Source of the DNA: a virus | Lineage: Duplodnaviria > Caudoviricetes | Virus record (IMG/VR): IMGVR_UViG_3300019926_000239 | Span: 1 to 56,472 of that record | Length of the DNA: 56,472 bases | Direction: 5' to 3' (one strand) | Shown here: piece by piece, positions 1,876 to 56,221 of the stretch | How the letters are laid out: each line of letters opens with the position of its first letter | Position numbering within the stretch: position 1 is the first letter of the stretch | Notes under the pieces: model-generated | Told to the model about the DNA's origin: nothing | The model's database searches: none | The model's input: only the letters and a program-made list of their open reading frames with translations | Translations under genes and position numbers: made by a program

Positions 1876-1931
1876 CATAAGGTATAAGTGATACCGCCAC
1901 GGACGATTAAGTAGAAGGTGAGGTGAACCCG
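1876..1931 (+). promoter_or_regulatory. dispersed promoter/leader repeat copy 1
   Basis: CATAAGGTATAAGTGATACC...GTAGAAGGTGAGGTGAACCCG then ATG 1932. Confidence 0.9.
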
Positions 1932-2231
1932 ATGACACAAGAAACCCTAAGCGCGTACGAAAGCAACGATGAGCAAACAAACGGCGACGTGTTCGAGACG
2001 CTTGAGGAGGGCGACCGGATACAGTTCGAGAGCAAGCGCCACGCCACCAAGAAGCCACACGTAGTCAAAACCGGTTACGACGGCAGCGACTTCGTAGCGA
2101 TAGAGGGTCCGGGTGGCGCAAGCAAGATGCTTATACAAAGCGCCAACTACCGCGATTATTTGAGCGTGATGAGTATGGGCGGCAGCGGCAAAGGCGAAAA
2201 GGTGAGCAACCTCCGCGTGGTGGGAGAGTAA
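1932..2231 (+). CDS. hypothetical cassette protein
   Basis: ATG directly after repeat copy 1. Confidence 0.8.
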   Translation: MTQETLSAYESNDEQTNGDVFETLEEGDRIQFESKRHATKKPHVVKTGYDGSDFVAIEGPGGASKMLIQSANYRDYLSVMSMGGSGKGEKVSNLRVVGE

Positions 2232-2232
2232 G

Positions 2233-2358
2233 ATGGCGTTTTGCGAAGGTTGCGGTGTGGATATGTGGGAGTATAGTGAGGCGGCTAAGAGCGACGGGTG
2301 GTGCCGTGGGTGTGCGCCGGAGATGTATTCCGGTGGGACTCACGTGGACGCCGAGTAA
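2233..2358 (+). CDS. 41-aa zinc-finger microprotein
   Basis: MAFCEGCGVDMWEYSEAAKSDGWCRGCAPEMYSGGTHVDAE; below ORF-track cutoff. Confidence 0.65.
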   Translation: MAFCEGCGVDMWEYSEAAKSDGWCRGCAPEMYSGGTHVDAE

Positions 2359-2485
2359 CCAGGCGGTTGCGGCAGCGGCACTATTCTACGCGGTTCCGCG
2401 CGGTCGTAGGCACAAGAAATATTAACCACGCGCCGGTAGCACCGGTTAACCACGGCACCCTCGTCGTGGCTAACACGGGAAAAAC

Positions 2486-6524: not shown

Positions 6525-6723
6525 GTAGCCGCCGTCTTGCGATGAGTTAGTCGGTTCCAAATCTCACCTCCGCGAAACCCGCTTCTTTGACACCTCACTC
6601 GACGAGTAGCCGCGGCGCTACGGTGCGCGGGCACGCGCGGTTTCACGCGGTTCCGCCGTGGTCACACGCACTTCCTAACACTCGAATAAGCAAGAAGGCA
6701 AGAAGGCGTAGGTATGGGTGGGG

Positions 6724-6779
6724 CATAAGGTATAAGTAGTACCGGTACGGACGATTAAGTAGAAGGTGAGGTGAACCCG
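6724..6779 (+). promoter_or_regulatory. dispersed promoter/leader repeat copy 2
   Basis: CATAAGGTATAAGTAGTACC...GTAGAAGGTGAGGTGAACCCG then ATG 6780. Confidence 0.9.
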
Positions 6780-6884
6780 ATGACAGAAAAAATAGACGTT
6801 GAAACGGTAACGGAACTCGAACGCGTTGCGGCGAACCCCACGGTCGTGCGCGCAACGGTTGCCCTCCTCACCGGTGGGGCGTAA
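6780..6884 (+). CDS. 34-aa cassette microprotein
   Basis: MTEKIDVETVTELERVAANPTVVRATVALLTGGA directly after repeat copy 2. Confidence 0.65.
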   Translation: MTEKIDVETVTELERVAANPTVVRATVALLTGGA

Positions 6885-7177
6885 ACAAGAGGTGAACCCA
6901 AATGAGCGAAAGAGAATCACGACACGACATAAGCGAGCGCGTAGTTGACCAGGTAATACCGGAAGCGGAGAAACTCAACGCGGTGCGTAGCGCGCGGTGC
7001 AAAGTCGGCGGTGAGCAATTCCACGGAGAGATAGGGCACTACTTCCGCCAACACCGCATAACGCTACGCGGCGACACGGATAGCGAACAGTTCCTCAAGG
7101 CGGTGAGTTACCTATGCGATAAGCACGGGCTTGAGGTGGACGAGGAGAAGGGGCACACGTTCGCGGGTGAGGATTAC

Positions 7178-8658
7178 AGGTGATACAGCAGAATGCCCCC
7201 GCCTTTAGGCGGGGGATGAATGCGTCAACCCCTTAGCCTACCGCGCCACGTAAACCCACTTGGATATTCGTTGCCTTTATATACTCTACAACCAATATAC
7301 AACTGTAATGGTCACGACGACGGTGACGGTAAAGTTCCACCAACCCACCCGTGAACGTAGACGCGAATGGCAGAAAGCCATGCGTCTCTACCGCGATACC
7401 AAGCAGTACGTCATAGACGGGTGGGAAAACGGAGACTTCGATATGTCCGTCACCACGTCGGAGATAGACAACGAACTCTACGCCGCCATACAGAACCAAG
7501 CCATACGCGAGGCTAAGAGCGACTACAAACGGGACGGGATAGTAGAGTACCACCAGAGCCAACCTTTCGCCGTCAACAACCAGAACTGGGAAGTTGACAC
7601 TACCGACAACGGCAACGTCGTCATCGGCTTCCCCTGTATAACCGGATGGTGGTACACTCCCGTAGAAGTCTACGACGAAGTGGACGAAGCCGTACAAAAA
7701 CTCATAGACGGTGAAGCCGATAAGTCACGGCTACAAGTCTACCGCCGTGGTTCTGAATGGTATGCCACCTTTAACGTCGAACACGAGCAAGACGTGGGTG
7801 GCGAAACACCTGTCGGTGTAGATGTAGGACACAACCACGTTCTCGCCGTCCGTGTACCCGACGAGGACGAATCCATGCTCGTATCCGGTAAGGAAGCGAA
7901 GTACGTCCGGCGTAAGTATCGTTCCCTACGCGATTCGCTACAGGAAGCGGGTGCGCTTCGCGCACGTAACCGCGTGGGTAACAAAGAACAGCGCCGGATT
8001 AAGGACATGAATCATAAACTCTCCCGTCAACTCGTAGAGTTTGCTTCCAAGTTTGAGAACGCCGTGATACGTATGGAGGACTTAGAAGGCATACGAGACG
8101 GTAACGGTTGGGATGGAGTCCACTCGTGGCATTTCCACCAGCTACAGGAGTTCGTCACGTACAAAGCAGAGAAAGAAGGTATCGAGGTTGAGAAGGTAGA
8201 CCCGCACAACACGAGTCAGACGTGTTCAGAGTGTGGCGAAGATGAAGACACGGTACGTGACGGCGACCACTTCGTGTGTCATGAGTGTGGGTACGAACGC
8301 CACGCCGACTTGAACGCGGCGAACAACATAGCGAGACGGGAGGGAGAAGCTTGTTAAGCAAATCGGAGATTTGCGTACCGTCGGAAATCTTCCGATTTCC
8401 GAGACTCGGCGTAACAGTCCGGCTGACGAACCGAGTGCCACGCGGGATTAGACAACCCGCCGTCGTTTTGACGCCTACCGTGAGTAGGGTGGAAGGCGGC
8501 TTTGACACCGCTACGTGTGCTGTAAAGGAGTGTCGGAGTTATAACGACACCCGACCTATGAAGGAGTCACGCGAAAGCGTACCCGAACTCCGAGGAAAGG
8601 CACAACCTTAATATCCCCTTCGGGGATTCCCGCGTCTTTAGGCGCGGGAGGATGTCAA
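7178..8658 (+). mobile_element. IS200/IS605-family (IS1341-type, tnpB only) element, 1481 bp
   Basis: Left hairpin CCCCCGCC-TTTA-GGCGGGGG, right hairpin CCCGCGTC-TTTA-GGCGCGGG ending in TCAA (8655-8658), inserted 3' of TTAC, no target duplication, no tnpA. Confidence 0.9.
7308..8357 (+). CDS. tnpB: RNA-guided endonuclease TnpB
   Basis: RuvC motifs GVDVG, MEDL, ADLNAA; zinc finger CSEC...CHEC; TTTATATA about 30 bp before ATG 7308. Confidence 0.95.
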
Positions 8659-8678
8659 GTGGTGCTACGCGTGGTCTA
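8358..8678 (+). ncRNA. predicted TnpB omegaRNA scaffold plus flank-derived guide (5' end unknown)
   Basis: Non-coding IS right end after tnpB; by known TnpB biology the guide is the sequence just 3' of 8658. Confidence 0.55.
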
Positions 8679-8810
8679 CGAGGAACACGGTTGGGAACCT
8701 ATGTACGCCACGGCTTGAGCGGGTGCGTGCCCGCGCGGCAGCGGCACTATTCTACGCGGTTCGGCGCGGTGCTATTCACCAAACTCGCATACGGCAGCAT
8801 GACACCGAGG

Positions 8811-8866
8811 CATAAGGTATAAGTAATACCGGCGCGGAGGACTAAATAGAAGGTGAGGTGAACCAA
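8811..8866 (+). promoter_or_regulatory. dispersed promoter/leader repeat copy 3
   Basis: CATAAGGTATAAGTAATACC...ATAGAAGGTGAGGTGAACCAA then ATG 8867. Confidence 0.9.
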
Positions 8867-9259
8867 ATGAGCGCACTACCCAACGAAGGCGACCGCACAG
8901 AACCCGCGTCCATAGAAACCAGCGAACTCAACGCCGGCGATACGCTACAAGGCGAAACCGGCGACTACCGCGGAAACGGCAAATGGAACTTCCACAACTA
9001 CTCGCTACCGGCTAACTTTATGGTAGTTGAGGAAGGTGAGGACAGCGTGACCCTCATACACCGCGGCGACCGTTTAGCGTACAACGTGAGCGAAAACTTA
9101 CGTCCCGACCTCGACACGTTCACCCTCAACCGCGACGGCACGATAGAGGGATACGAGGGCGGCGTGGACGCAACGCTTGCGTGGAAGGAGGTTGAGGTGG
9201 TTGAGGGACTAAGCGGGCGGCACTACGTAGCCGAAGCACTTGCGCACCGTGAGGAGTAA
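8867..9259 (+). CDS. hypothetical cassette protein
   Basis: ATG directly after repeat copy 3. Confidence 0.8.
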   Translation: MSALPNEGDRTEPASIETSELNAGDTLQGETGDYRGNGKWNFHNYSLPANFMVVEEGEDSVTLIHRGDRLAYNVSENLRPDLDTFTLNRDGTIEGYEGGVDATLAWKEVEVVEGLSGRHYVAEALAHREE

Positions 9260-9301
9260 GCGGGCGAAACGCCTAACAACCCCGCGCACTATTTTACGCG
9301 T

Positions 9302-11880: not shown

Positions 11881-12069
11881 TCACCGACCTCCTTCAACGC
11901 GGTCACACGTATATGCTATCCAGTCCGTGCTTTCCCAGGTTTCTTTTCCGTCCTCCCATTCAACGCGCGCTTCGTTTTGCGCGTCGTTTACCTCGACTAC
12001 TTCAAACCTTTTTGTACCGCTTGGGTCTATGTCGTACGTGTCGCCTTCCGTGGGTTGTGTTTCGCTCAT
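11881..12069 (-). CDS. hypothetical cassette protein
   Basis: ATG directly after repeat copy 4. Confidence 0.75.
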   Translation of the reverse strand: MSETQPTEGDTYDIDPSGTKRFEVVEVNDAQNEARVEWEDGKETWESTDWIAYTCDRVEGGR

Positions 12070-12129
12070 TTGGGGTTCACCTCTTTGCTCGCATCCATAG
12101 ATAAAGGGCGGTACTACTTATACCTTATG
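12070..12129 (-). promoter_or_regulatory. dispersed promoter/leader repeat copy 4
   Basis: Reverse complement CATAAGGTATAAGTAGTACC...GCGAGCAAAGAGGTGAACCCCAA-ATG. Confidence 0.9.
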
Positions 12130-34233: not shown

Positions 34234-35394
34234 ATGGCAAAACTAACAGACGGCAGCGAAACGATAGCAAGCAACCTAACGCCCAAAGAGGTGCGCGCGC
34301 TACGCAACCGCGGCGTTGAGGTGTCGATGGAGATAACGCAAGAGTCCGGCACCGGCGCGGGCGACGAGGAGGAAATCGAGGACGAGAAGGACGAACTCGA
34401 CGAACTCGATGAGGAGGGTGAGAACACCGAGTGGCATGGTGTGGATGAGGATGAGGATTATGAGAGCGCAAGCCGTAGCGACCGCCGCCGCGTTGAGCGC
34501 GCACAACGTGAGGCGGACAAGAACGAGACGCCACTCGGCAAGCGCATCAACGACCGCGACGAGCGCATCACCGGCGGCGATAACCCGTACTACAACAACG
34601 AACAACTACGTGAGGAGATGGCGGACAACAACATGATAACGGACGTGCGCCGGGCGTTCGAGAAGTTCGCCACCGAGGACGTTAAGCGCCGGGAAACCAG
34701 CGGCGACCGCCTCAACATGAGAGCCGCCACCCGGCACCTAAGCGGCGACTACTCCGAGCGCCACGTTTACGAGAGCGAATACACCGCGGCAACCGGTGGG
34801 CGCACGATAGGCGTGGCACTCGACATAAGCGGCAGCATGGACGGCATACGCATCAAGCAAGCCAAGATGGCACTCGCCTCACTTGCGGAAGCCGCCGATG
34901 CGATAGGCGATGAGTTAGTGGCAAGCGGCTACACGACGGCGGACACCTCGACCGGTGCCGAGGACATCCGAACGCCACTCATCACGGCACCAGGTGAGTC
35001 GTTCCGATACAAGCACCTCGACAGCGTGGCACCCAACGGCTACACGCCCACGGCGTGCGGCATCAACGACGCCGCCGACCTACTACGCGACGAGGGCGGC
35101 AAAGAACTCGTCCTGGTGTGTATTACGGACGGCGTGCCGACGCACGACCTCGAAGGCAACCACCTCGGCGACGGTGCCACGGAGGCGGTTGAGGACGCGG
35201 CACGCCTCACCAACAAACTACGCGCGGAGGGCATCAAGGTGTTCGGCATAGGCATCGGCGGCGCACGACGCGACCTTATGCGTGAGATGTTCGGTGAGAG
35301 CGGGTTCGTTATGACCACCAGCGACCAACTTGCGGACGACTTGGTTGAGATGTACGAAGACCAACTCGACATCGAGCGCCCGCACTCGTTCTAA
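34234..35394 (+). CDS. VWA-domain protein (CobT C-terminal-like)
   Basis: MIDAS DISGSM, GYTPT, ITDG, GIGIG. Confidence 0.9.
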   Translation: MAKLTDGSETIASNLTPKEVRALRNRGVEVSMEITQESGTGAGDEEEIEDEKDELDELDEEGENTEWHGVDEDEDYESASRSDRRRVERAQREADKNETPLGKRINDRDERITGGDNPYYNNEQLREEMADNNMITDVRRAFEKFATEDVKRRETSGDRLNMRAATRHLSGDYSERHVYESEYTAATGGRTIGVALDISGSMDGIRIKQAKMALASLAEAADAIGDELVASGYTTADTSTGAEDIRTPLITAPGESFRYKHLDSVAPNGYTPTACGINDAADLLRDEGGKELVLVCITDGVPTHDLEGNHLGDGATEAVEDAARLTNKLRAEGIKVFGIGIGGARRDLMREMFGESGFVMTTSDQLADDLVEMYEDQLDIERPHSF

Positions 35395-35659: not shown

Positions 35660-35719
35660 CATAAGGTATAAGTAGTACCGCGGTGAATGGACGAATGCGA
35701 GCAAAGAGGTGAACCCAAG
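35660..35719 (+). promoter_or_regulatory. dispersed promoter/leader repeat copy 9
   Basis: CATAAGGTATAAGTAGTACC...GCGAGCAAAGAGGTGAACCCAAG then ATG 35720. Confidence 0.9.
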
Positions 35720-37096
35720 ATGGCAAAAAAGAGCGACTACATCAAGGCGATAGCACAGAACGACGAGAACCCCACCGCGGACGAGATAGCCGACGAGGTT
35801 GACGAACACCTCGGGCACACGCAACGCAAACTCAAGGAACTCGCCGAGGAGGGCGAGATTGAGCGTGAGCGCGGCGGCAACGGCTACGAATACTTCCTCC
35901 CCGCGGAGGCGGAGGCGCTTGTGGGTGAGGGCGGCAGCAACGGACTCGACCGTATGCCCGTTAACCGCGGCTACGATTTCAGCAACCACCGCGTTGAGGA
36001 ACCCCACGAATACTTCTCAAGCGACGACGAGTTAGCGGAACTCAACGCGATGGTTAACGCGCGTGAGGCAACCGGCGAACCCGTGCGCGCACTCATAGAC
36101 GGCGACACCGGCACCGGCAAAACAACCCTCGCCGAAAACGTGAGCGCGCTACAAGAAGCCGCATACTTTGAGGTTCAGATGTCCCCCAACATGGACGAGG
36201 GCGACCTATTTGGTAGCCCGGCACTCGCCGGCGACGAAAGTGTGTGGGTGGACGGCACGGTTACGAAGGCGCTTATGGCAAGCGCGGCACCCGAAACCCA
36301 GGTCAAGAACGGGTGGGCGGCAGACCTCGAAAGCGCACACGACGGCACCGTGGTTCTCCTCATAGACGAGGTTAACCGCGCACCGCCACGCGCTAAGAAC
36401 GCACTCTTTAGCGCACTCGACCACCGCGGGCACGTTACGCTTGAGGGACCGCGCGCCGGTGAGGTCATAAGCGGCGACCCCCTCGACCTGGTTGTTATAG
36501 GCACCATCAACCAGGGCGATGAGTACCACGGCACGGCGCGGATGGACTTAGCCGAAAAGAGCCGGTGGACGACGAGGTTCACCAGCGAGTACCTGGCACA
36601 AGACCCCGACGGTGAGGGCGTTGAGCGCGAGGCGGAACTCTTGGTTAGCCGTAAGGGCGTTGCGCCGGAACTTGCGCGCACGATGGTCGAGACGGTTGCC
36701 CGCGTACGCAAGCGCGCCAACGACCGGAGTGACCGCGCGGTAACGTTCGGCATACCTACGCGTGCGGTGCTTGCGTGGGGCGGCACGGCACACGCCCTCG
36801 CCGAAGCCGGTCTCGACAACCCCGTGGTGCGCGCCGCGGAACGCGCGGTGGTTAAGCCGTTCTACGACAAGGCGGAACACCAGGACGCCCGCGACGAGGT
36901 TATGAGCATCATCGAGGACAAACTACACGGCGCACCCTTTGAGGCGGACGCGTACGAGGAGTTCGCCGCCGACGAGATTGTTGAGTGCGGCGAGTGCGAC
37001 TACCGCACCAGCAAGCGCCGCGCCGAGGACGAGGGCGTGATGGCGGTTATGGAGTGCCCGGAATGCGGCGGCACGGTTGAGCGTAAGAGCCGGTAA
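35720..37096 (+). CDS. MoxR/CbbQ/CobS-type AAA+ ATPase with N-terminal wHTH and C-terminal zinc ribbon
   Basis: GDTGTGKT, LLIDEVNRA, GTIN, MDLAEKSRW; CGEC...CPECG. Confidence 0.9.
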   Translation: MAKKSDYIKAIAQNDENPTADEIADEVDEHLGHTQRKLKELAEEGEIERERGGNGYEYFLPAEAEALVGEGGSNGLDRMPVNRGYDFSNHRVEEPHEYFSSDDELAELNAMVNAREATGEPVRALIDGDTGTGKTTLAENVSALQEAAYFEVQMSPNMDEGDLFGSPALAGDESVWVDGTVTKALMASAAPETQVKNGWAADLESAHDGTVVLLIDEVNRAPPRAKNALFSALDHRGHVTLEGPRAGEVISGDPLDLVVIGTINQGDEYHGTARMDLAEKSRWTTRFTSEYLAQDPDGEGVEREAELLVSRKGVAPELARTMVETVARVRKRANDRSDRAVTFGIPTRAVLAWGGTAHALAEAGLDNPVVRAAERAVVKPFYDKAEHQDARDEVMSIIEDKLHGAPFEADAYEEFAADEIVECGECDYRTSKRRAEDEGVMAVMECPECGGTVERKSR

Positions 37097-40487: not shown

Positions 40488-40543
40488 CATAAGGTATAAG
40501 TAGTACCGGTACGGACGATTAAGTAGAAGGTGAGGTGAACCAA
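40488..40543 (+). promoter_or_regulatory. dispersed promoter/leader repeat copy 10
   Basis: Identical to copy 2 through GAGGTGAACC; ATG 40544. Confidence 0.9.
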
Positions 40544-40861
40544 ATGATAACACAAACCAGCGAACTCACGGACGCACTCGAAGCCGGCGACCGCATCGAA
40601 GTAACGTACACCAGCAACCAAAGCGGCAACCGCAAGACACTCACCGGCACCGTTGAAAGCGTAGCCGGCAGCACAACCGGCGGCTACGACTTCGGTGAGG
40701 TCAACCTTACGACGGACGAGGGCGACCAACGCCGCATCAACGCGCAACCGGTAGACGACTTCAAGGTTGAGGCGCGCGTCAACGACCTCGACACCGGCAA
40801 GCACCACACCCGCAAGATAAACGCCACCGCGACCGACGTGGGCGTTGAGGTGGTGGCGTAA
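40544..40861 (+). CDS. hypothetical cassette protein
   Basis: After repeat copy 10; LEAGDRIEV resembles LEEGDRIQF of 1932..2231. Confidence 0.8.
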   Translation: MITQTSELTDALEAGDRIEVTYTSNQSGNRKTLTGTVESVAGSTTGGYDFGEVNLTTDEGDQRRINAQPVDDFKVEARVNDLDTGKHHTRKINATATDVGVEVVA

Positions 40862-46326: not shown

Positions 46327-46563
46327 CGGCGCGGTTATGTGCGGGTGCCGCGTAACCGACCGCGAACCTACAACGCCCGCGGGCAACCGCGTGGCGTAAG
46401 TCGAAATATCCGTGTGACCGCCTCATCGGAGGCGCGGTACACTACGACGGCATATTGGTATTGTCAAGCCGTGGGAGGGCTAAAGCATACTATACTCGAC
46501 CGTCACACCGCGGCGTCCTGGTGGGCGCGCCGCGTTTTTGAGAACCGTACCGCGTAGCGCCGC

Positions 46564-46797
46564 CTACGTGCCGCGCCCGCGTTCCTCGTTCCTGGTTTCA
46601 GGGTGCCGGCGTTCGGCAGCGCGCGCAACCTCCTCACCACACTCGGGGCACGACACGGTTTTGTAGTACGTGCCGTCCTCCTCGTCGGTGCCGTGGATGC
46701 ACTCACTCGCAAGCGCTTCGTGGTAGCACTCGTCGCACTCGAACTTCGGTTCGGGTTCCGGCGGGCGCTTGCGTGGCGTAGGACTACGGCGCGCCAT
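46564..46797 (-). CDS. small zinc-finger protein
   Basis: CDEC...CPECG; abuts upstream stop. Confidence 0.7.
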   Translation of the reverse strand: MARRSPTPRKRPPEPEPKFECDECYHEALASECIHGTDEEDGTYYKTVSCPECGEEVARAAERRHPETRNEERGRGT

Positions 46798-46959
46798 CTA
46801 AACCACCCGCCCACTCACGGCGGTGAAATCGAAGCCGTCCATCATGTACGGCGCATCCTCCAGGGCGGCTTCCACCGCTTCCTCGTCACTCTCCGCCACA
46901 ACCGTTATTTCCCGCGTCTGTCCTACGTTGCTTTCGACCGTTATTGTGTATTCTTGCAT
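46798..46959 (-). CDS. 53-aa cassette microprotein
   Basis: MQEYTITVESNVGQTREITVVAESDEEAVEAALE... after repeat copy 11. Confidence 0.7.
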   Translation of the reverse strand: MQEYTITVESNVGQTREITVVAESDEEAVEAALEDAPYMMDGFDFTAVSGRVV

Positions 46960-47014
46960 CGGGTTCACCTCACCTTCTACTTAATACCATACACCGGTAC
47001 CACTTATACCTTTG
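46960..47014 (-). promoter_or_regulatory. dispersed promoter/leader repeat copy 11
   Basis: Reverse complement CAAAGGTATAAGTGGTACC...GTAGAAGGTGAGGTGAACCCG-ATG. Confidence 0.9.
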
Positions 47015-47143
47015 GGAACAACATCGCCGCGACGTATGGCGATTCCTCGAACGGCACCGCATAGAACCGCGTATTACCGCGGCGCACGGCGCGCACGCGG
47101 CGCAAGCGTTCCACTCGACGAGACTCTCGCGCAACCCGGAACG

Positions 47144-47500
47144 CTACGGCGGCGACCAGGTGGGCGACACCTCAACGAACTCGACTTCTTGCGTTAGGTA
47201 GCCGGCACCCAACTCCTCAACCGCGTGGGTGGGTACGATAACCACGGCAGCGTACGGCTTACCGCGGCGGTCGCACAACTCGTTCTGGTATGCCAGGGCT
47301 TGACCGACCGCCTCATACGTAGCCCACCGAGAGTTCTCGACCTCGACGGCAAGCGACCGACCGATAGGCGTCTCAACCACGAAGTCGGCGCGCCGCCCAC
47401 TCGGTAAAACAACCTCCTCGTCAACATCCTCCTCGGCGTAATGATGCGTTAGCCACGCGCGTACCGTCTCACCAAACTCACTTTCCGATATGTGCGTCAT
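47144..47500 (-). CDS. PD-(D/E)XK-fold nuclease
   Basis: E..LPSGRRADFVV...AVEVE...AVGQALAY (QxxxY motif). Confidence 0.75.
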   Translation of the reverse strand: MTHISESEFGETVRAWLTHHYAEEDVDEEVVLPSGRRADFVVETPIGRSLAVEVENSRWATYEAVGQALAYQNELCDRRGKPYAAVVIVPTHAVEELGAGYLTQEVEFVEVSPTWSPP

Positions 47501-47520
47501 ACGCACCGGCGTACGCACCC

Positions 47521-47757
47521 GTGGCACTTATCGGCAGCGTACACGTACCGGCGCGCGTGAAAGAGGAACGGAAGCGGTATGTGGCGTATCACGCGCGTTG
47601 GCAACTTTCTACGCTTGTGATGTTGGTGCCGATGTGGTTACTCAACACGTTCGCGGGCTTGAGCGGGTGGGCGGCGCTACCACTCGTCCAACTATACGGC
47701 GCGGTTATATTCTGGTATGTAGACCGATACATCTTCACCGCCGACCTCGACGGGTGA
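47521..47757 (+). CDS. small two-TM membrane protein
   Basis: YHARWQLST...GAVIFWYVDRYIF. Confidence 0.6.
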   Translation: MALIGSVHVPARVKEERKRYVAYHARWQLSTLVMLVPMWLLNTFAGLSGWAALPLVQLYGAVIFWYVDRYIFTADLDG

Positions 47758-47848
47758 AGCGTGTGGCGTGCGCGCACCACGGCGCGGCATCCGGCGGTCG
47801 AACGCGGCACTTTCGCGGCACCGTGCCGCCGTATGCGAGTTAGGGCAC

Positions 47849-47913
47849 CATAAGGTATAAGTGGTACCGGTGCGGAGTCACGAATGCAGACGGACGACAA
47901 GAGGTGAACCCAA
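47849..47913 (+). promoter_or_regulatory. dispersed promoter/leader repeat copy 12
   Basis: CATAAGGTATAAGTGGTACC...ACAAGAGGTGAACCCAA then ATG 47914. Confidence 0.9.
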
Positions 47914-48294
47914 ATGAGTGAAGAACACACCAACGACGAAGCACAGAACGAAGCAAACGACGACCTCGGCGACTTTGAGGAGGAAACCGGCATCACGCCG
48001 CCGGGCAACGACGAGAGTGAGAGCGACGAGGAGTACGCCGGCACCACGGAAAGCGACGAGGATAGTGAGGAGTACGACGAGGTTAGCAAGCGCGTGAGCG
48101 AGAGCGCGGATAAGGTAACGGTTACGTGGAAGTGCAAGCGCGGCAACGGCACGCGCGACCAGGACGAGTTCAAGGTCAAGGCGAAGGGTGAGAGCGCGGA
48201 GGAGGTTAACCAGCAACTCACCGCGGTGCAAGAGCAAGTCGCCGAGATGATGGACGTGGCGCGCGACATACAACCCGACGAGGACGATGAGTGA
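47914..48294 (+). CDS. haloarchaeal-virus hypothetical protein
   Basis: KRGNGTRDQDEFKVKAKG motif after acidic N-terminus. Confidence 0.75.
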   Translation: MSEEHTNDEAQNEANDDLGDFEEETGITPPGNDESESDEEYAGTTESDEDSEEYDEVSKRVSESADKVTVTWKCKRGNGTRDQDEFKVKAKGESAEEVNQQLTAVQEQVAEMMDVARDIQPDEDDE

Positions 48295-48490
48295 GGTGCT
48301 TGAGCGTACCGCCGACGCGTTTGCGGATGTGAGCGTGCCCGCCGACCTCAACGGCAGCACGGTCGAGGTACGCCGTCCGGTGGGCGGCACGATTGCGGAG
48401 GGCGTGGTTGAGGATGGCACGGTGAGCGTACCGCCGTGCTACGCCGGCGCGGATGTTGAGGTACACCCGGTCGGCGAAATACCGGCGTAA
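48287..48490 (+). CDS. hypothetical protein
   Basis: Coupled to upstream gene. Confidence 0.65.
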   Translation: MSEVLERTADAFADVSVPADLNGSTVEVRRPVGGTIAEGVVEDGTVSVPPCYAGADVEVHPVGEIPA

Positions 48491-48581
48491 GCACGCGCAC
48501 GCCCGCGCGGCTACGGCACTATTCTACGCGGTTCCATGCGGCGCGTGAGGCAAACCCACGGAAGGCGGCACGGTGGTAAGG

Positions 48582-48640
48582 CATAAGGTATAAGTAGTAC
48601 CGCGGTGAATGGACGAATGCGAGCAAAGAGGTGAACCCAA
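48582..48640 (+). promoter_or_regulatory. dispersed promoter/leader repeat copy 13
   Basis: Identical to copy 9 through GAGGTGAACCCAA; ATG 48641. Confidence 0.9.
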
Positions 48641-49063
48641 ATGACACACGAACGCAAGCACGTAAGCGAGTATAGTGGCGAAAAGAGGTACGAGATGGAA
48701 GCCGCCTTCGGTGAGGACGCGACCGTGGTGGAACTCGACACGGACGAACTTGAGAGCGCGGGGCGCGACGAGAATGAGCCGTCGGCGCGTGAGGAGTTCC
48801 ACACCGACATCGAGGAGGGCGACAAGATAGTGGTGCGCTTCGGCAGCGGCAAACTTGCGGAGGACATCGTGACCGACGTAAAGAGTTGGGGCTTCACGAC
48901 GGACGGCGTGCGCACCACCGAACACTACGAAGGTGAGACGACGGGATGGTTTGGCAGCACGTACCGCTTCGAGGACTTTGGTGGGTTTGACGACCGCGGC
49001 GTTAACTACGAACTCGTCGAACACGTGCCCGCGGCGGAACACGACGAGGAGGTGAGCCACTAA
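48641..49063 (+). CDS. hypothetical cassette protein
   Basis: After repeat copy 13. Confidence 0.8.
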   Translation: MTHERKHVSEYSGEKRYEMEAAFGEDATVVELDTDELESAGRDENEPSAREEFHTDIEEGDKIVVRFGSGKLAEDIVTDVKSWGFTTDGVRTTEHYEGETTGWFGSTYRFEDFGGFDDRGVNYELVEHVPAAEHDEEVSH

Positions 49064-49233
49064 TGGGGCGGCGCTACGCGGCAAAGGTAACAACCACGCG
49101 CGCCGAGGATGTTGAGGTGCGCGTAACCGCCGGCAGCGAGGACGAGGCAAAGAGCGCGGCGCTACGTAGGGCAACGCACCAGGTGGTTGGTGACGACCCG
49201 TACGTGACCGAGGTTGAGGAGGTCGAGGGATGA
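49063..49233 (+). CDS. 56-aa microprotein similar to 46798..46959
   Basis: VRVTAGSEDEAKSAAL vs ITVVAESDEEAVEAAL; TAATG coupling. Confidence 0.65.
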   Translation: MGRRYAAKVTTTRAEDVEVRVTAGSEDEAKSAALRRATHQVVGDDPYVTEVEEVEG

Positions 49234-49463
49234 GCGACCACGCCGACGTGTTCGACTCATACGTTGAGGAGGGCACCGTGTTTGAACGCCGTAGCACCGG
49301 CGGGCGTGTCACGGTTGAGGGCATCGCACTCGATGAGGATGCGCGCGTCCACGTCTACATCACCGACGAGGAAGCGGGTTATGACAACGACTCGGTTTAC
49401 CTCGGCGACCTGGTGGATGCGGTTGAGCGTGGAGAGTTGCGGCAACTCACGGCGCGCGCGTAA
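49230..49463 (+). CDS. hypothetical protein
   Basis: ATGA-coupled. Confidence 0.7.
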   Translation: MSDHADVFDSYVEEGTVFERRSTGGRVTVEGIALDEDARVHVYITDEEAGYDNDSVYLGDLVDAVERGELRQLTARA

Positions 49464-49542
49464 CGCCGCGGTCAAACGTGGTTTCCGGCGGCATCGACAC
49501 ACCTATTTTCGCAGAATACCGGAAGGCAGCACGACACCGAGG

Positions 49543-49603
49543 CATAAGGTATAAGTGGTACCGGTGCGGAGTCATGGATGCGAGCAAAGAGGTGAACCCC
49601 AAA
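49543..49603 (+). promoter_or_regulatory. dispersed promoter/leader repeat copy 14
   Basis: CATAAGGTATAAGTGGTACC...GCGAGCAAAGAGGTGAACCCCAAA then ATG 49604. Confidence 0.9.
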
Positions 49604-49873
49604 ATGACACAAGAGTTCCCCGAAACCGTGACGTGTGGCGCGTGCATCGTAGACAGCATCGAAAACGACGGCGGCGAACCAGCGGACGCCGAACTCGACA
49701 CCGTGAAGGAGGTCAACGGTTGGATTAACGAAGCAAGCGTGTACGAGGTAGCCGAATACGAGTGCCCGGAATGCGGCGGCACCGGCAGCATCCACGAAAG
49801 CGGTGGACGCCTCGGCGTGTGCGCCACACCCAAGCCACCCCAGGAACCACCCGTTGCCCCGGAACACAAGTAG
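49604..49873 (+). CDS. small zinc-finger cassette protein
   Basis: CGAC...CPECGGTG. Confidence 0.75.
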   Translation: MTQEFPETVTCGACIVDSIENDGGEPADAELDTVKEVNGWINEASVYEVAEYECPECGGTGSIHESGGRLGVCATPKPPQEPPVAPEHK

Positions 49874-49987
49874 GCGGGCAACCTCGACCACCATACCGCT
49901 AAACCGCCTCGACGCGGAGTGCGTCGGGCGGGGCGGTCGGGCAACCCGCCACCCGTACAACCGGCGGGCATAACAAAAGGTGATATA

Positions 49988-50835
49988 ATGGAAAGCCAAG
50001 ACAGCGAATTGGACTCGATGAAGGTATTGCCATCCGCCGCCGGCTTCGGCGACGTTGAGGAGGGCGCGGTCTACTACGGGCGCGTCAACAACGTTACCGA
50101 CTTCGGCGTGTTCGTAACACTCTCCGAGGGTTACGGCGACGACGAGGTTACGGGATTGATGCACATTAGCAACCTCAAGCCACTACACCGACCCACCGAC
50201 TTCGGTGTGGGCGACCAGGTGGCGGTTGAGGCGCAAGAGGTCAACGTACGGAAGCAAGAGATAGCCCTCGGCTTGGTGCGTGTGATTGAGGGGCTTAAGG
50301 GCACCAGCGACGACGAGGGTTGGAGTGGTGTGCGTGAACGCGTAGCCGCGGACGGCAGCGACGAGGACGAGGAGGATGAGAGCGTGCCGTGTGAGTATTG
50401 CGGTGAGCCGTTCGAGAACGACCACAACCTTGCGGTGAGCCGTTCGAGAACGACCACAACCGCCGCATACACGAAAACCGGTGGTGTGAGGAGAACCCCG
50501 ATAGCGCGCGCAACCAGGGCGCGGACAATACCGGCACCTCCTCGCAAGAGGCGGGCACCGGCGACGAGGATGAGGAGTTGGATGAGGGCAAGCAAGAGCG
50601 TGAGTTCGTTACGCAACCAGCGGAGGAGTTGGACGAGGCAGACCACACGGTTGGCACGCCCGCGGGTGAGGCGCGTGAGGCGGTAGACCTCAACCGCATC
50701 GTGGCAACGTTGCGCGATGAGCCGGATGTGCGTGATGTGGTGTTCGACGCGACGGAGTTGGGCGACCTCATCGGCTTCGAGTTCGATGAGGATGAGCGTG
50801 TGGTGGACATCAGCATAGACCTCTCGGACAAGTAG
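49988..50835 (+). pseudogene. S1 RNA-binding domain + zinc finger protein frameshifted by a 32-bp tandem duplication
   Basis: GRVNNVTDFGVFV...GLMHISNL...VGDQV S1 motif; duplication 50398-50429/50430-50461. Confidence 0.75.
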
Positions 50836-50947
50836 CGGCGCGGTAAGCCGCGGCGGCGCGCGGCGTGCGCACTCTCCGCCGTGGTAAATGCCACTTTTCT
50901 ATTACGCGAACGGGCAAACCCGCATACGGCAGCGCGATGGTGGTACC

Positions 50948-51002
50948 CAAAGGTATAAGTAGTACCGGTACGGACGATAAGGTAGAAGGTGAGGTGAACC
51001 AA
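50948..51002 (+). promoter_or_regulatory. dispersed promoter/leader repeat copy 15
   Basis: CAAAGGTATAAGTAGTACC...GTAGAAGGTGAGGTGAACCAA then ATG 51003. Confidence 0.9.
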
Positions 51003-51338
51003 ATGACGCTAACACAAAACCCCAGGCAAGACGAACGCCGTAGCATAGAAGCCGAGAACATCCACTTCGACCTCGACCGCGATGAGTACGAGGTTGCGCT
51101 TGAGGTGCTTGAGGACGAACGCGACGAGGACGGCACCGTAACCGTAGACATAGACCTCATCACCGAGGCGATAGACGTGGTGCGTGAGGAGGTTACGGAG
51201 GCAGCACGCCCGCAAACACGTGAGAAAGCCGTGGCGCGCCGCGTTGGTGAGCGCGCGATGGAGAACGTAGACGAGGCGGTGCGCGACCTGGCATACGACT
51301 ACGAGTGGATAGAGGTGGCGGACGAGGTGAACCTATGA
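51003..51338 (+). CDS. hypothetical cassette protein
   Basis: After repeat copy 15. Confidence 0.8.
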   Translation: MTLTQNPRQDERRSIEAENIHFDLDRDEYEVALEVLEDERDEDGTVTVDIDLITEAIDVVREEVTEAARPQTREKAVARRVGERAMENVDEAVRDLAYDYEWIEVADEVNL

Positions 51339-51634
51339 CGCAAGCGGCACTCGGCGACTTCGGCGACGACGGCGGCAGCACCGAGGAGGACGAGAGCGCG
51401 GGCATCACCCAGGCACCGGCACCCGCCGGCTTCGAGAGCGGCGAAACACTCACCCGCATCCGTGAGGGCGGGCGCATATACGCGGAGGTTGAGAGCGTGC
51501 CCGCGGCGAACAACATGGACGTTTACGAACTACGCGTAACCAACACGGAGGAGTCGAGCGCGGTGGGCGTGGGCAACCTCATAACCGCACACCAGGCGGC
51601 AATAGGCGACAAGTGGAGGAGGTGCGAGGAGTAA
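51335..51634 (+). CDS. hypothetical protein
   Basis: GAGGTGAACCT-ATG, ATGA overlap. Confidence 0.7.
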   Translation: MTQAALGDFGDDGGSTEEDESAGITQAPAPAGFESGETLTRIREGGRIYAEVESVPAANNMDVYELRVTNTEESSAVGVGNLITAHQAAIGDKWRRCEE

Positions 51635-51990
51635 TGCCGTCGCTACGCCTATCGAAAGCGCGGTCACTCATCAAAGAGGAGACGCACGAATACCGTGGGC
51701 GTACGATAGAGGTTTACGCGTACGCCGAACTATACGACCGCCCACTACTCGACCGGTGGTTGTGGCACCGCCTCACGGGCAAACCAACCGCAAAGACGTA
51801 CGTAGGGCGGCATATACGCGCCGAGGTTGAGAGACGCGGCGGCGGCAGCAAGTACGTACACGACCGCATCAACAAGTACGGCAACCACCAGAAGCCGCAA
51901 ACCGAACTCAACCGGCACATCACTCACACACTACGCAAAGCGCAACGGTGGGTCGATAAGGACGAGGAGTTAGCCGCGGGGGCGCGGTAG
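51634..51990 (+). CDS. basic hypothetical protein
   Basis: TAATG coupling; unusually Arg/Lys/His-rich for this genome. Confidence 0.65.
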   Translation: MPSLRLSKARSLIKEETHEYRGRTIEVYAYAELYDRPLLDRWLWHRLTGKPTAKTYVGRHIRAEVERRGGGSKYVHDRINKYGNHQKPQTELNRHITHTLRKAQRWVDKDEELAAGAR

Positions 51991-51991
51991 T

Positions 51992-52675
51992 ATGAGCGAA
52001 GTGCCGGACGCCGTGATGAGCGAACTCAACGAACTCATCGAGGAACGCACCAGGGACATGGTTGAGGCGAGCCGCAAACTCGATAAAGCACCTATGTGGG
52101 CGTGGCTACCGGGACGCGCGCTTAAGCCGCGCGAACTTGCGGCGGCGCTACCAAGAGAAATCGGCAACCTCGTCGTATATGCACCGGTAACGTTCGACGG
52201 CAAACACCCGCCGGTAGTTATCGACGAGGACGACGTGCTACGGGTGCGGTGGTTCCTCCTCAAAACCGAAAGCACGTACACCGAGGTCTTCCTACACCAC
52301 GTAATGAAGCCGAAGGTAAGACCAAGACCGTCATTACATGGGTGGCGGAAAGACCAGCGCGGGCGGGTTGAGGAGTTCCCCGACGTACAAGAGGCGGGCG
52401 CGTACTACCTACCTTCGGGTTGGGGCGCACCCGAATTAACAGCGATAGCCGGCTACTTCCAAGCCGACGGTATGGATTTCCCCTCATACCGTGAGGCGGT
52501 GGTTAAGGACGGGGAGACGCGCACAAGCCTATTCAAGAACGACGATAAGTTACACCTCACACGCCTCAACCTGGCAGCGGAGTCCAACCATCTCATGTCG
52601 AGCGACTATGAGGTGCTTAGTGAGGTACGTGAGGCGCTTGACGAGTTCGGCGATTGCTTAGAAGTTGAGTGGTAG
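51992..52675 (+). CDS. hypothetical protein, paralogous to N-domain of 38660..40396
   Basis: PMWAWLPGRALKPRE...ALP...FLLKT. Confidence 0.75.
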   Translation: MSEVPDAVMSELNELIEERTRDMVEASRKLDKAPMWAWLPGRALKPRELAAALPREIGNLVVYAPVTFDGKHPPVVIDEDDVLRVRWFLLKTESTYTEVFLHHVMKPKVRPRPSLHGWRKDQRGRVEEFPDVQEAGAYYLPSGWGAPELTAIAGYFQADGMDFPSYREAVVKDGETRTSLFKNDDKLHLTRLNLAAESNHLMSSDYEVLSEVREALDEFGDCLEVEW

Positions 52676-52717
52676 CACGGCGATACCTCTTTAACGCACG
52701 CGCCGGTACGTGCCCGT

Positions 52718-54471: not shown

Positions 54472-55440
54472 GTGAGCGAGTGCGCGCATAACCACCAGGG
54501 TGGTGAGGCGCAAGAGGTGGTCGAACGCCTCACCGCAAACCGTACGTTCCCGCACGGCGGCAAAGACCCAACGGGCACCACCAAACTACGCGACCGGTAT
54601 GCGGGTGAGATGTACCGCCGGTTCCGCGCACTCAAAGGTCTGGTTCGGCAAGTTGTAGTCGAGGACGACGCGTTCAACCTCAAGAGCGAGGAACGGTTGA
54701 GCGGTAGCCGCGCGGAACAACGTGGTGCCGCACAAGAGCGCGACCGGTTTGGTATGAAGCCGCCGCGTAACGGCTTCGATTTCCCTAACGATGCGCGTAA
54801 GATTGAGGAGTTCAGCGAGTGGCTTGACGCGCAAGTGGATAAGGGCATCCTCGAACGCGTGCAACACAACCGCGGCGCACGTGATTCCTGGCAGCACACA
54901 TACATCCGCAACGCGTACCGTAAGGGCGTGGAACACGCCGAGCAAGCGATGCAAAGTGAGGGCATCGCCTCGGCGAGTGAGGTGTCGGCGGATGCGTTCA
55001 ACGCGCCGCGCCACACCGACGCCGCACAGATGTTATACGCGCGTGCTTATCGAGAACTCGACGGCGTGACGGCTAAAATGGGGCAAGAGATGAGCCGTAC
55101 GCTTGCGGAGGGTCTTACCCAGGGCAAGAACCCGCGTGCCGTTGCGCGTGACCTCAACGACCGCGTGGATAAGGTGGGCATCCGCCGCGGGCGTCTCATC
55201 GCACGCACCGAAACCATACGCGCGCATAATGAGGGTGCGCTTAACCGCTACCAGGATTTCGAGAAGCGGATGGACGGCGTTACGGTGAAGGCGGAGTGGA
55301 GTACGGCGGCGGATGCCAGGGTTTGCCCGCGGTGTGCGATGCTTGAGGGGCGGCGGTTCAAGATGAAAGAGGCGCGCGGACTCATACCACTACACCCTTT
55401 GTGCAGATGCACCGTCATACCGGTTAGGCAAAACACTTAA
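54472..55440 (+). CDS. MuF/SPP1 gp7-like head morphogenesis protein
   Basis: LIARTETIRA, W....DARVCPRC, PLHPLCRC. Confidence 0.9.
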   Translation: MSECAHNHQGGEAQEVVERLTANRTFPHGGKDPTGTTKLRDRYAGEMYRRFRALKGLVRQVVVEDDAFNLKSEERLSGSRAEQRGAAQERDRFGMKPPRNGFDFPNDARKIEEFSEWLDAQVDKGILERVQHNRGARDSWQHTYIRNAYRKGVEHAEQAMQSEGIASASEVSADAFNAPRHTDAAQMLYARAYRELDGVTAKMGQEMSRTLAEGLTQGKNPRAVARDLNDRVDKVGIRRGRLIARTETIRAHNEGALNRYQDFEKRMDGVTVKAEWSTAADARVCPRCAMLEGRRFKMKEARGLIPLHPLCRCTVIPVRQNT

Positions 55441-55593
55441 TGCTGGTGTGCCATAAACAGCGTGAGCGCGACGAGAACGGACGTTACGTATAACGCGCTT
55501 TTACCGGTGCGCACGGATAACAACTAAACCCGCGTTGAGCGCGTTGGGTTTAAGTATCCGCCGGTACTATTTACACCCGTAGGTGAACCAATA

Positions 55594-56073
55594 ATGGCGA
55601 AACCAACAACGGCGGCACCGGATAGAGATACAAAAGAACGAGAGACACTCGCACAAATGGCGTCCCTCCTCACCGACGAGGGCTTGAGCCACGCGGAGGC
55701 GGTCTACTACTACCTTATCGACGTAGTGGGTGCCGACCGCTACTCCCAGGTGGCAGCGGAGAGCGGCACGTACGCCACGGGGCGCGATGCAAGTAGCATC
55801 AAAACCGTGCTTGACCGCGCGCGTGAGAAGGTCGAGAACCCCGACGCGTACACCGACCCGTATGATGCGCATAACCGTTTCCTGGTGAACGTGACCAGGC
55901 GTATGCGTGACGAGGGCGCTACACCACGCCGCGCGTTTTACGCGGCAGCACTCGATGTCAACGGCATCGAGAACCAACACCTCGCTACCGACCGCGGTAA
56001 GCCGTCTCCCTACGTTACGGGGCAAAAGCACGGCAACATCCGCGAGGCGGTGAGGAACGTCGGCGGCGCGTGA
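55594..56073 (+). CDS. hypothetical protein with two HTH-like halves
   Basis: TTTAAG promoter and AGGTGAACC SD upstream. Confidence 0.65.
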   Translation: MAKPTTAAPDRDTKERETLAQMASLLTDEGLSHAEAVYYYLIDVVGADRYSQVAAESGTYATGRDASSIKTVLDRAREKVENPDAYTDPYDAHNRFLVNVTRRMRDEGATPRRAFYAAALDVNGIENQHLATDRGKPSPYVTGQKHGNIREAVRNVGGA

Positions 56074-56161
56074 GGCGCGTGCCCGCGCGGCAACCCGCGG
56101 TTCGCGTACTATTCTACCACTCTTAATATACCACCACGGCGGAGTGTGGCGATTGCCCCAC

Positions 56162-56221
56162 CATAAGGTATAAGTGCTACCGGTGCGGAGTCATGGATGC
56201 GAGCAAAGAGGTGAACCCCAA
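56162..56221 (+). promoter_or_regulatory. dispersed promoter/leader repeat copy 16
   Basis: Nearly identical to copy 14; ATG 56222. Confidence 0.9.

Follow-up and report, generated by a model that had tools for sequence, protein, structure and literature searches.

The DNA analyzed here, referred to as the window, is an entire IMG/VR record (IMGVR_UViG_3300019926_000239), linear, 56,472 bases long and about 60% G+C. Its most repeated 12-mers belong to a short intergenic element, here called a header, that stands in 16 copies directly before the start codons of mutually unrelated genes. From its protein matches, the virus can be classified as an uncultured Hardycor1-like (Graaviviridae) haloarchaeal siphovirus. 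Among cultured viruses, Halorubrum phage Hardycor1 is the nearest relative, with a major capsid protein (MCP) that is 58% identical (tblastn). Genes were called with our own heuristic, which gives 81 predicted proteins and is not a validated annotation; compared with Hardycor1 (tblastn), these yield 30 matching segments in conserved order. Among them are TerL (62.5% identity), portal (57%), MuF (57%), the homologue of Hardycor1 _105 (56%) and an AAA ATPase (56%), as well as a protease-like protein, the MCP, neck-region genes, the tape measure, Hjc and a vWA/MIDAS protein. Family scans (Pfam on 50 proteins, PHROGs on 20) agree with the Hardycor1 matches, and the sole Rfam match at gathering thresholds is one tRNA-Gln.

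Relatives were also sought with individual proteins. A portal profile found two short contigs at 60% identity (L046 and L047) and three more distant ones, with none among metagenome contigs, and an AAA profile found HHTV-2 itself, contig L053 and two weak matches. A TerL protein search returned relatives at about 30% identity only, and 25 kb of the window, compared with the phage collection by megablast, gave no match.

The headers share a common plan. The core AAGGTATAAGT, an 11-mer, occurs exactly 16 times in the window, 13 times on the + strand and three times on the - strand; with up to two mismatches it has 27 matches against a shuffle mean of 5.74, and none of 100 shuffles reaches 27. 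The 10-mer GAGGTGAACC, which resembles a Shine-Dalgarno (SD) motif, occurs exactly 19 times, 16 of them in headers and three outside (6889+, 32704-, 51324+), and with up to one mismatch it has 40 matches against a shuffle mean of 3.52. In every header GAGGTGAACC starts 40-49 nt past the core start and is followed 2-5 nt later by an ATG, which lies 53-62 nt from the core start and opens an open reading frame (ORF) of 34-458 aa, the last of these leaving the contig end. All 16 copies are intergenic, in gaps of 140-509 nt, and co-oriented with the ORF that follows; intergenic DNA makes up 11.8% of the window. An nhmmer profile of the 16 copies recovers them at 36.8-61.4 bits and its next best match scores 9.6 bits, and the scan of the window found no copy within coding sequence or in reverse orientation. 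The header class is sharply bounded.

Copies are named below by the start of their core. A preliminary description of this DNA had placed elements at 16 coordinates, and the exact core is present at every one. The order that it gave, core, SD-like motif and ATG, also holds; its uniform gap of about 25 nt does not, as the distance from (T/C)ACC to the SD-like motif is 23-32 nt, nor does its CA(T/A) lead, since AAGG is preceded by CAT in 12 copies and by CCA in four. Invariant parts are the 11-mer core, an ACC at +14..+16 and the 10-mer before the start codon. In an ungapped tabulation, position +13 (T in 15 copies, C in one) and a G at +17 are near-invariant, and copy 26357 alone has CACC instead of TACC.

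The leaders can be classified into two types: type A, containing ACGGACGATTAAGTAGAAGGT, in eight copies, and type B, containing ATGCGAGCAAA, in seven, one of them a long variant. The leader of copy 26357 is unique, and leaders are identical within the pairs 6727/40491, 12126/25506 and 35663/48585. The 30-110 nt upstream of the core also sort into families. Farther upstream lie CGCGG/CCGCG-rich blocks, one of which also precedes gene 2486, where a header is absent (family D13); CGCGGTT is intergenic in 12 of 24 occurrences, a 7.5-fold density excess. In addition, cores 1879, 8814, 25506, 35663, 47852 and 50950 have the 8-mer CATACGGC, or its reverse complement, 17-27 nt upstream; by our reading these sites, in either orientation, account for six of the 11 exact ones genome-wide. 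CACGGAAGGC occupies the same place before cores 32881, 40491 and 48585 and recurs in the first codons of ORF 12069-11881. Both could represent an upstream factor site or the footprint of past rearrangement; neither shows genome-wide enrichment once mismatches are allowed.

No further instance of this element was recognized in the collections searched. The core plus TACCG has 19 single matches in IMG/VR, all on contigs of 29-51% G+C and none with the SD part, and these were set aside as chance. The core-gap-SD pattern has no match among metagenome contigs and one among the genomes of 185,579 species, in a metagenome-assembled genome of Sporomusaceae, likewise taken as chance. In IMG/VR the type-A leader has one unrelated match lacking the TATA core and the type-B leader has none. 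The coordinates of all copies and of the neighboring genes are collected in Table 1.

Table 1. Headers (numbered in order, with core start), a possible further copy, the two enlarged intervals and virion genes used as landmarks
Feature	Position	Strand	Following genes and setting
Copy 1 (1879), type A	1876..1934	+	ORF 1932-2231 (99 aa, ORFan; no Pfam/PHROGs match); MuF-to-protease interval
Copy 2 (6727), type A	6724..6782	+	34-aa ORF 6780-6884, then 6902-7183 with its own exact GAGGTGAACC; MCP-to-neck insert
Copy 3 (8814), type A variant	8811..8869	+	ORF 8867-9259 (130 aa, ORFan); neck genes begin 42 nt beyond
Copy 4 (12126), type B	12067..12129	-	Three small ORFs 12069-11566, one with CXXCXGXG zinc finger; inverted between homologues of Hardycor1 _090 and _105
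Copy 5 (25506), type B, leader as copy 4	25447..25509	-	ORFs 25449-25306 and 25303-24962
Copy 6 (26357), unique leader, CACC	26354..26413	+	Replication/recombination operon 26411-31810 (with Hjc), led by an orthologue of Hardycor1 _215
Copy 7 (32881), type A	32878..32936	+	32934-34016, homologue of N-terminal third of Hardycor1 vWA/MIDAS protein _245
Copy 8 (34179), type A	34176..34236	+	34234-35394, vWA-domain half of _245 homologue; header within split gene
Copy 9 (35663), type B	35660..35722	+	AAA_5 (MoxR-like) ATPase 35720-37096, orthologue of Hardycor1 _240
Copy 10 (40491), type A, leader as copy 2	40488..40546	+	ORFs 40544-40861 and 40862-41068
Copy 11 (47012), type A variant	46957..47015	-	46959-46798 (53 aa) and 46797-46564 (zinc ribbon); first of five in TerL-to-portal insert
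Copy 12 (47852), long type-B variant	47849..47916	+	47914-48294 (DUF7389) and 48287-48490
Copy 13 (48585), type B, leader as copy 9	48582..48643	+	Three ORFs 48641-49463
Copy 14 (49546), type B	49543..49606	+	49604-49873 (CxxC protein, partial homologue of Hardycor1 _235), then S1-domain ORF 49988-50686
Copy 15 (50950), type A	50947..51005	+	Four ORFs 51003-52675, ending 42 nt before portal gene
Copy 16 (56165), type B	56162..56224	+	ORF from 56222 to contig end
Possible diverged 17th copy	55546..55596	+	TTTAAGT ... GGTAC ... AGGTGAACC-AATA-ATG before ORF 55594-56073; seen by eye only, missed by the profile
TerL-to-portal block, 6.4 kb	46327..52717	.	Five headers
MCP-to-first neck-region gene block, 2.8 kb	6525..9301	.	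Two headers and TnpB gene
TerL	45115-46326		
Portal	52718-54469		
MuF	54472-55440		
Protease-like	2486-4927		
MCP	5433-6524		
Neck1-like	10169-10519		

The genes behind the headers are diverse. Copy 26357 heads a 5.4-kb operon of 12 predicted ORFs that runs to 31810 (two low-scoring overlapping calls lie at 30855-31088), copies 32881 and 34179 precede the two halves of the vWA/MIDAS protein, and copy 35663 precedes the AAA_5 ATPase. The other 12 copies are each followed by one to four small ORFs, almost all without a family match; the exceptions are the DUF7389 protein, the zinc-finger/ribbon ORFs and the S1-domain ORF after copy 49546. By our count, a header is the nearest obvious promoter upstream of roughly 40 of the 81 predicted genes. 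The 16 first ORFs form 120 pairs, no pair of which is similar in BLASTP at E<0.01, and a paralogous cargo family was rejected on this result. The headed genes had been described as unrelated and non-structural: unrelated they are, while non-structural means here that none of the 16 first ORFs, mostly ORFans, matches a structural family, which is short of a demonstrated role. Two proteins in the TerL-to-portal insert deserve mention. One is the S1 RNA-binding-domain protein (+ strand, E=5.4e-07); the other is the 53-aa first ORF of copy 47012 (46798-46959, - strand), whose weak 'RNA polymerase inhibitor' matches (Pfam PF16857, E=0.0064, below the cut-off; phrog_1307, E=6.6e-4) are a lead only.

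A precedent for such repeats is known from the HF1/HF2-type haloviruses, and it is experimentally backed. Class I repeats of HF2 carry GGTATCTTTAAGTC and were identified as promoters with a bgaH reporter and primer extension; transcription starts at a G 26 nt after the AT motif begins, and mutation of the TATA box or the start region abolished activity (PMC8707807). By anatomy, genomic context and this tested analogue, the interpretation of the header as an archaeal promoter, with an element recognized by transcription factor B (the BRE) and a TATA box, fused to a short SD-bearing leader is well supported. Its parts would be a purine-rich BRE-like CAT/CCA-AAGG, the TATA box TATAAGT, the conserved proximal TACC, and a leader whose GAGGTGA precedes the start codon by 5-8 nt. 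In all 16 copies TATAAGT stands 49-58 nt ahead of the ATG, always intergenic and co-oriented with the ORF, in agreement with the TATA box proposed earlier. When the HF2 repeat spacing is transferred to the window, the start is predicted about 26 nt after the first T of TATAAGT (about 30 nt past the core start), which would leave a 5' untranslated region (UTR) of roughly 19-27 nt.

This geometry distinguishes headed genes from their neighbors. An AT-rich hexamer 45-62 nt before the ATG is found in 16 of 16 headed genes against 6 of the 25 element-less genes that come first in a transcription unit, and 14 of those 25 have such a hexamer at -38..-24, the leaderless geometry. Of the coding transcripts of Haloferax volcanii, 72% lack a leader (PMC4983044, in the part available). 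Since unheaded unit-first genes mostly show the leaderless geometry and headed genes have their box at -62..-45, most other unit-first genes of the window would have the ordinary leaderless haloarchaeal look and the headers would mark a distinct leadered class. A bacterial-promoter interpretation was dropped: a sigma-70-type scan of 40000-56472 gave five sites against 4.0 +/- 2.1 in shuffles, none of them at a header. As promoters, the headers would switch on the replication operon, the AAA ATPase, both vWA halves and about a dozen small ORFan units as one co-regulated class. Taken whole, an archaeal promoter with a standard leader that defines a co-regulated class and recombines at its core is, in our judgment, the probable explanation.

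Headers are also present on the same genes in related viruses. The Hardycor1 paper reports 20-83-bp repeats before six ORFs, and the available part of it gives no function for them (PMC7911831). With the leader motif GGGGCGACCC we find eight header copies in that genome, before _045, _095, _160, _215, _230, _235, _240 and _245; the copies before _215 (32585-32660) and _240 (38694-38770) are absent from the repeats listed in the same available part (PMC7911831). Five of the eight sites (_215, _240, _245, _045 and _095) have a counterpart in the window, through orthology or position. Three of these precede orthologues of headed window genes, _215 being the 26411 gene, _240 the AAA gene and _245 the vWA gene, and _235 is partly homologous to 49604. 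The header of _215 contains GTATAAGTG. HHTV-2 (Saparoviridae) has exactly three copies of another header, before the split vWA genes 2 and 3 and the AAA gene 10, and L053 has the HHTV-2-type header before its AAA gene, while the vWA and AAA genes of HCTV-2 are unheaded. The annotated GTG start of HHTV-2 gene 3 (1703) falls inside the header repeat, and a downstream ATG is probably the true start.

In all three header types a TATA-like box precedes the ATG by 47-63 nt and bases resembling GAGTGTAG or AAGTAG stand near the expected start, and their mixed alignment reaches 53% mean column identity. A profile scan of related viruses had been proposed as a check on the element; the window profile detects no header of the relatives (best nhmmer E 4.5; 26 loci, 312,867 nt). 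Regulon membership thus appears to be conserved and the cis-sequence not. Membership that is kept while the cis-sequence is replaced would fit co-evolution with a specific factor, homogenization within each genome by recombination, or both. Of particular interest is the vWA/MIDAS gene, which is one ORF in Hardycor1 and HCTV-2 and two ORFs in the window and HHTV-2, split in an acidic linker with a header in the gap. This comparison shows that a header was apparently gained or lost inside the linker more than once.

The conserved part of the header may be mainly an operator, at which a virus-encoded factor, or a particular host factor of the TFB/TBP type, recognizes the GGTA-N7-TACC dyad around the TATA box and switches the 16 units jointly. 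We hold this tentatively, as possible; it is compatible with the promoter explanation and would refine it, as a basal promoter alone needs no 15 invariant bases. The 11-mer core and the ACC are invariant in 16 of 16 copies, next to leaders up to 19 edits apart, and headers are uniform within the genome, yet the window profile misses those of relatives on orthologous genes; this uniformity could also come from recent duplication or gene conversion alone. Dyads that flank or adjoin the TATA box occur in HHTV-2 (GGGGA...TCCCC) and Hardycor1 (ATATCG-N5-CGATAT), whereas the dyad arms in the window measure only 4 bp. Virus-encoded factors acting on the HF2 repeats were proposed by the HF2 authors, but those repeats are active in Haloferax volcanii without viral genes (PMC8707807). 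Candidate DNA binders in the window are an AbrB/MazE-type domain at 38194-38655, a weak winged helix-turn-helix (wHTH) at 43632-44168 and several zinc-ribbon ORFs.

The first of these belongs to a divergent gene pair, 37823-38149 (-) and 38194-38655 (+), separated by 44 nt that contain the palindrome GTATTACTGAATAATAC. The product of 38194-38655 ends in the AbrB/MazE-type DNA-binding domain (E=8.7e-06), and 37823-38149 is homologous to Hardycor1 _260. The pair looks like a small regulatory switch and is a candidate source of a header-binding factor.

The two sides of the core assort independently. Across the 16 copies, edit distances in the upstream segment (-33..-4) and in the leader are uncorrelated (Mantel r = 0.004, p=0.45), whereas the far-upstream 65 nt and the near-upstream 30 nt are correlated with each other (r = 0.35, p=0.0065). 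Copies 35663 and 48585 have a leader distance of 0 and an upstream distance of 17-19; copies 1879 and 47852, conversely, have an upstream distance of 2 and a leader distance of 18-19. All four combinations of two upstream and two leader types are present, in copies 1879, 35663, 40491 and 48585. Because upstream and leader relatedness are uncorrelated across the core, we propose crossover at the core, which would fit these independent halves as their simplest account. Crossover between copies within the invariant core would swap everything downstream, leader and cargo alike, and keep the copies uniform. It would also explain the moron-like cassettes in the virion module and the division of the vWA gene into two headed ORFs.

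The positions given earlier for the cassettes among the virion genes agree with the coordinates of TerL, portal, MuF, the protease-like gene, the MCP and the Neck1-like gene. For the cassette said to lie between tail terminator and tail tube the place is right, and the names rest on position and on homology to the unnamed Hardycor1 _090 and _105. TerL and portal are 250 nt apart in Hardycor1 and about 220 nt in L046, whose portal is 60% identical, against 6.4 kb in the window, and the MCP and the next gene are 80 nt apart in Hardycor1 against 2.8 kb. These distances show that cassettes have apparently been inserted at the TerL-portal and MCP-neck junctions relative to the relatives. The MuF-to-protease and _090/_105 intervals are filled in Hardycor1 too (_045/_050 and _095), with non-homologous genes, and in L047 the MuF-protease gap holds an inverted ORF of 99 aa that has a header of its own. 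The headers of the two enlarged junctions (five and two) cluster in variable regions between conserved core genes, and the cargo mostly lacks family matches, the arrangement by which promoter early stem-loop (PeSL)-like cassettes are recognized. Identical cargo at every site in relatives had been named as an argument against exchangeable cassettes; at family distance, relatives carry other cargo or none at syntenic sites. The shuffling suggested in the preliminary description is thereby strengthened, as it is by the independent assortment of the halves; the idea itself is not new, having been raised for HGTV-1 (PMC3950731, in the part available).

Several observations weigh against the explanation by promoter, co-regulation and recombination. 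Nucleotide and protein searches found no close relative, and cassette gain, loss or exchange was never directly seen; CheckV estimates the contig to be 84% complete. Repeated independent insertion of a core-plus-leader unit into unrelated contexts could likewise give independent assortment of the halves. A second AT-rich box 24-37 nt before the ATG is present in five type-A and two type-B copies and could provide a second, near-leaderless start. Only 42 nt separate the units of copies 8814 and 50950 from the neck and portal genes, respectively, and read-through into structural genes is possible there. Signals that would close a unit are sparse: folds of the upstream 100 nt have z-scores from -3.1 to +1.5, with 1 of 16 below -2, and a scan of 40000-56472 gave 26 terminator-like sites against 18.3 +/- 4.7 in shuffles, lying just upstream of two of the seven headers there. 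Perfect hairpins of at least 6 bp are found upstream of some copies only, and T runs of at least 4, by our reading, upstream of 6 of 16. The term self-contained cassettes is not borne out, given these weak terminator signals, the 12-ORF operon and the possible read-through. Finally, in H. volcanii 5' UTRs, SD matches of 0-7 nt were without effect and an 8-nt match repressed expression tenfold (PMC3986360, in the part available).

The clearest terminator-like sites that we saw are two tandem hairpin-plus-T-run sites at 32668-32726 and 32785-32832, after gene 32044-32640 and before header 32881; in the first, TTTTT follows a GTGTGTGTGAG/CTCACACACAC stem of 11 bp.

The role of the SD-like motif has to be seen in this light. 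All 16 headers contain the 7-nt GAGGTGA, which covers seven of the eight bases of the extended motif GGAGGUGA, and none contains all eight. Among non-headed genes, 32 of 65 have an SD match of at least 5 nt located 3-12 nt before the start; by our reading, without a scripted count, these lie mostly inside operons, and unheaded unit-first genes mostly lack a match. Since SD motifs in H. volcanii 5' UTRs are dispensable (PMC3986360, available part), it is unsafe to call GAGGTGAACC the SD that drives initiation, and the earlier view of it as a working initiation signal is not supported. It may serve on read-through polycistronic RNA or have another role. The same source reports that SD motifs in H. 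volcanii are enriched before distal operon genes, where they are probably functional, and HF2 transcripts reach up to 35 kb (PMC8707807).

Six type-B leaders (12126, 25506, 35663, 48585, 49546 and 56165) also contain a mini-ORF, ATGCGAGCAAAGAGGTGA, situated approximately where the transcript is predicted to start; it terminates in the TGA of the SD-like motif, 5-8 nt ahead of the main ATG. In the 47852 leader, which is 6 nt longer, an ATG...TGA frame is retained with 8 codons; nothing comparable occurs in type A.

It is conceivable that the functional unit is mainly RNA, with the leader controlling translation either by SD-directed internal initiation on read-through transcripts or, for type B, by way of a leaderless mini-ORF of 5 codons that hands ribosomes to the main AUG. 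The invariance of GAGGTGAACC in all 16 headers, the exact 10-mer before two internal genes (6889 and 51324) and the mini-ORF frames, including the one kept in 47852, point in this direction, as do the distal SD motifs and the very long HF2 transcripts. The eight type-A copies have no mini-ORF, however, and the invariant TATA-containing core is left unexplained. RNAalifold finds just a 4-bp TACC/GGTG pairing (-1.64 kcal/mol) that lacks covariation, and TACC is expected upstream of the start site; on this result a conserved leader RNA structure was rejected. We consider a mainly RNA-level function improbable.

A broader interpretation would join several of these ideas. The header would be a self-propagating recombination module with a private reader, able to place any downstream gene behind any upstream context and to cut genes into separately expressed domains. 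It would co-evolve with the virus's own factor as a private regulon, which is suggested because headers are uniform within a genome, unrecognizable between related genomes and kept on orthologous genes. The type-B mini-ORF, ending in the UGA of the SD, would load ribosomes for reinitiation, a workaround for hosts that do not use a 5'-UTR SD. As a complete picture this seems unlikely. Least convincing is a selfish miniature mobile element or insertion-sequence remnant that spreads intergenically with no regulatory role, which would suit the high copy number, the mosaic flanks, the copy inside a split gene and the TnpB gene in the same insert as two copies, but neither terminal inverted repeats nor target duplications were seen to flank the copies, none lies in coding sequence or reverse orientation, and co-orientation in 16 of 16, ending 2-5 nt before an ATG, is not expected of selfish insertion; we regard it as highly improbable.

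If the header is taken as a promoter with a recombining core, the phenomenon belongs to a known kind, that of halovirus promoter repeats and PeSL-like cassettes. As in HF2, the repeats are genome-specific and solely intergenic, have a TAAGT-type TATA box preceded by GGTA(T) (GGTATCTTTAAGTC in HF2, AAGGTATAAGT in the window) and conserved bases around the start site (predicted in the window), and are tied to non-structural genes, early-middle in HF2, with virus-encoded regulators suspected. They differ in number, 7 copies in 77.7 kb against 16 in 56.5 kb, and in design: the HF2 repeats (six of them considered) end anywhere from 2 nt inside to 190 nt before the next feature, two precede tRNAs, and there is no fixed leader-SD-ATG arrangement. 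Both sequence and position are kept among HF2 relatives, whereas for the window headers position is kept and sequence is not, and the viruses are of another family and morphotype. In an alignment of six HF2 and six window copies the T-TAAGT columns are invariant and little else aligns; by our count the two agree at 18 of 43 positions, with only the TATA box and a short run of ATTA-AG in common, and homology to the HF2 class I repeats is not indicated.

Hardycor1 is of the same lineage, and its repeats stand directly before start codons and partly overlap them, at orthologous genes (_215, _240 and _245) and equivalent sites (_045, which follows MuF, and _095, which lies inverted between the neck and the tail genes). 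Its header, in contrast, has the TATA-adjoining palindrome and a leader hairpin CCGGGGCGACCCGG, with no GGTGA-type SD, and the TerL-portal and MCP-neck junctions of this virus hold no cassettes. Lambdoid phages have morons, extra genes that bring their own promoter and terminator and sit between genes that are adjacent in relatives. The window cassettes likewise sit between such genes, each with a predicted promoter of its own; the moron is a bacterial-virus concept, and morons do not have one common standard promoter. The start-associated sequences (SAS) of Cluster K mycobacteriophages are conserved motifs that take in the ribosome-binding site and, in some of the genes, stand a few bases ahead of the start codon; they too are known from bacterial viruses, and they are not promoters.

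HGTV-1 has a conserved TATA-plus-inverted-repeat motif before most left-arm ORFs that has been likened to the PeSLs of T4-type phages (PMC3950731), and in the PeSL model recombination between repeated promoter stem-loop copies drives modular shuffling (PMC2839356). A repeated promoter cassette before many ORFans and hyperplastic regions between core genes are common to these systems, as far as the available parts of the two sources go (PMC3950731, PMC2839356), and to the window; the likeness to HGTV-1 is one of description. PeSLs differ in having sigma-70 promoters and proven terminator stem-loops in bacterial myoviruses, where mini-circles were seen (PMC2839356, available part); in the window the terminator signals are weak and no exchange event was seen. 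What sets the window apart is its copy density, the fixed leader-SD-start design, the invasion of the morphogenesis module and a clean statistical signature of exchange at the core.

Other features of the genome are listed for completeness. Between the MCP and neck genes lies a TnpB/Cas12f-like gene at 7308-8357 (+), also 8358-8650 (Cas12f1-like_TNB, E=3.6e-25, and a weak OrfB_IS605 match). It has a leaderless-type TATA box at about -32 and several perfect hairpins downstream, possibly a guide RNA or the end of an element, and no tnpA was seen. The ORF at 41124-43514 (+) encodes a 796-aa fusion of ParB_N, N6/N4 DNA methylase and a PLP-dependent-enzyme domain. At 44741-44850, a 44-nt unit built of 11-nt TTTACGGTAAA units is repeated 2.5 times with 100% identity, just upstream of the small ORF 44854-45102 and TerL, and may serve as a packaging (pac) or terminase-binding site.

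Promoter-bearing repeats are one of the few handles on gene regulation in haloarchaeal tailed viruses, and the HF2 set alone has been tested. The window contributes the densest header set among those compared, about one copy per 3.5 kb, with a fixed promoter-leader-start design in a mostly leaderless host group, and it provides internal sequence evidence for an invariant promoter core as a recombination joint. Together with Hardycor1 and HHTV-2, it suggests a regulon (replication operon, AAA and vWA genes) that keeps its members while the cis-sequence is replaced. If this holds true, the headers would be ready-made reporter parts for Haloferax or Halorubrum and a test case for PeSL-like shuffling in archaeal viruses.

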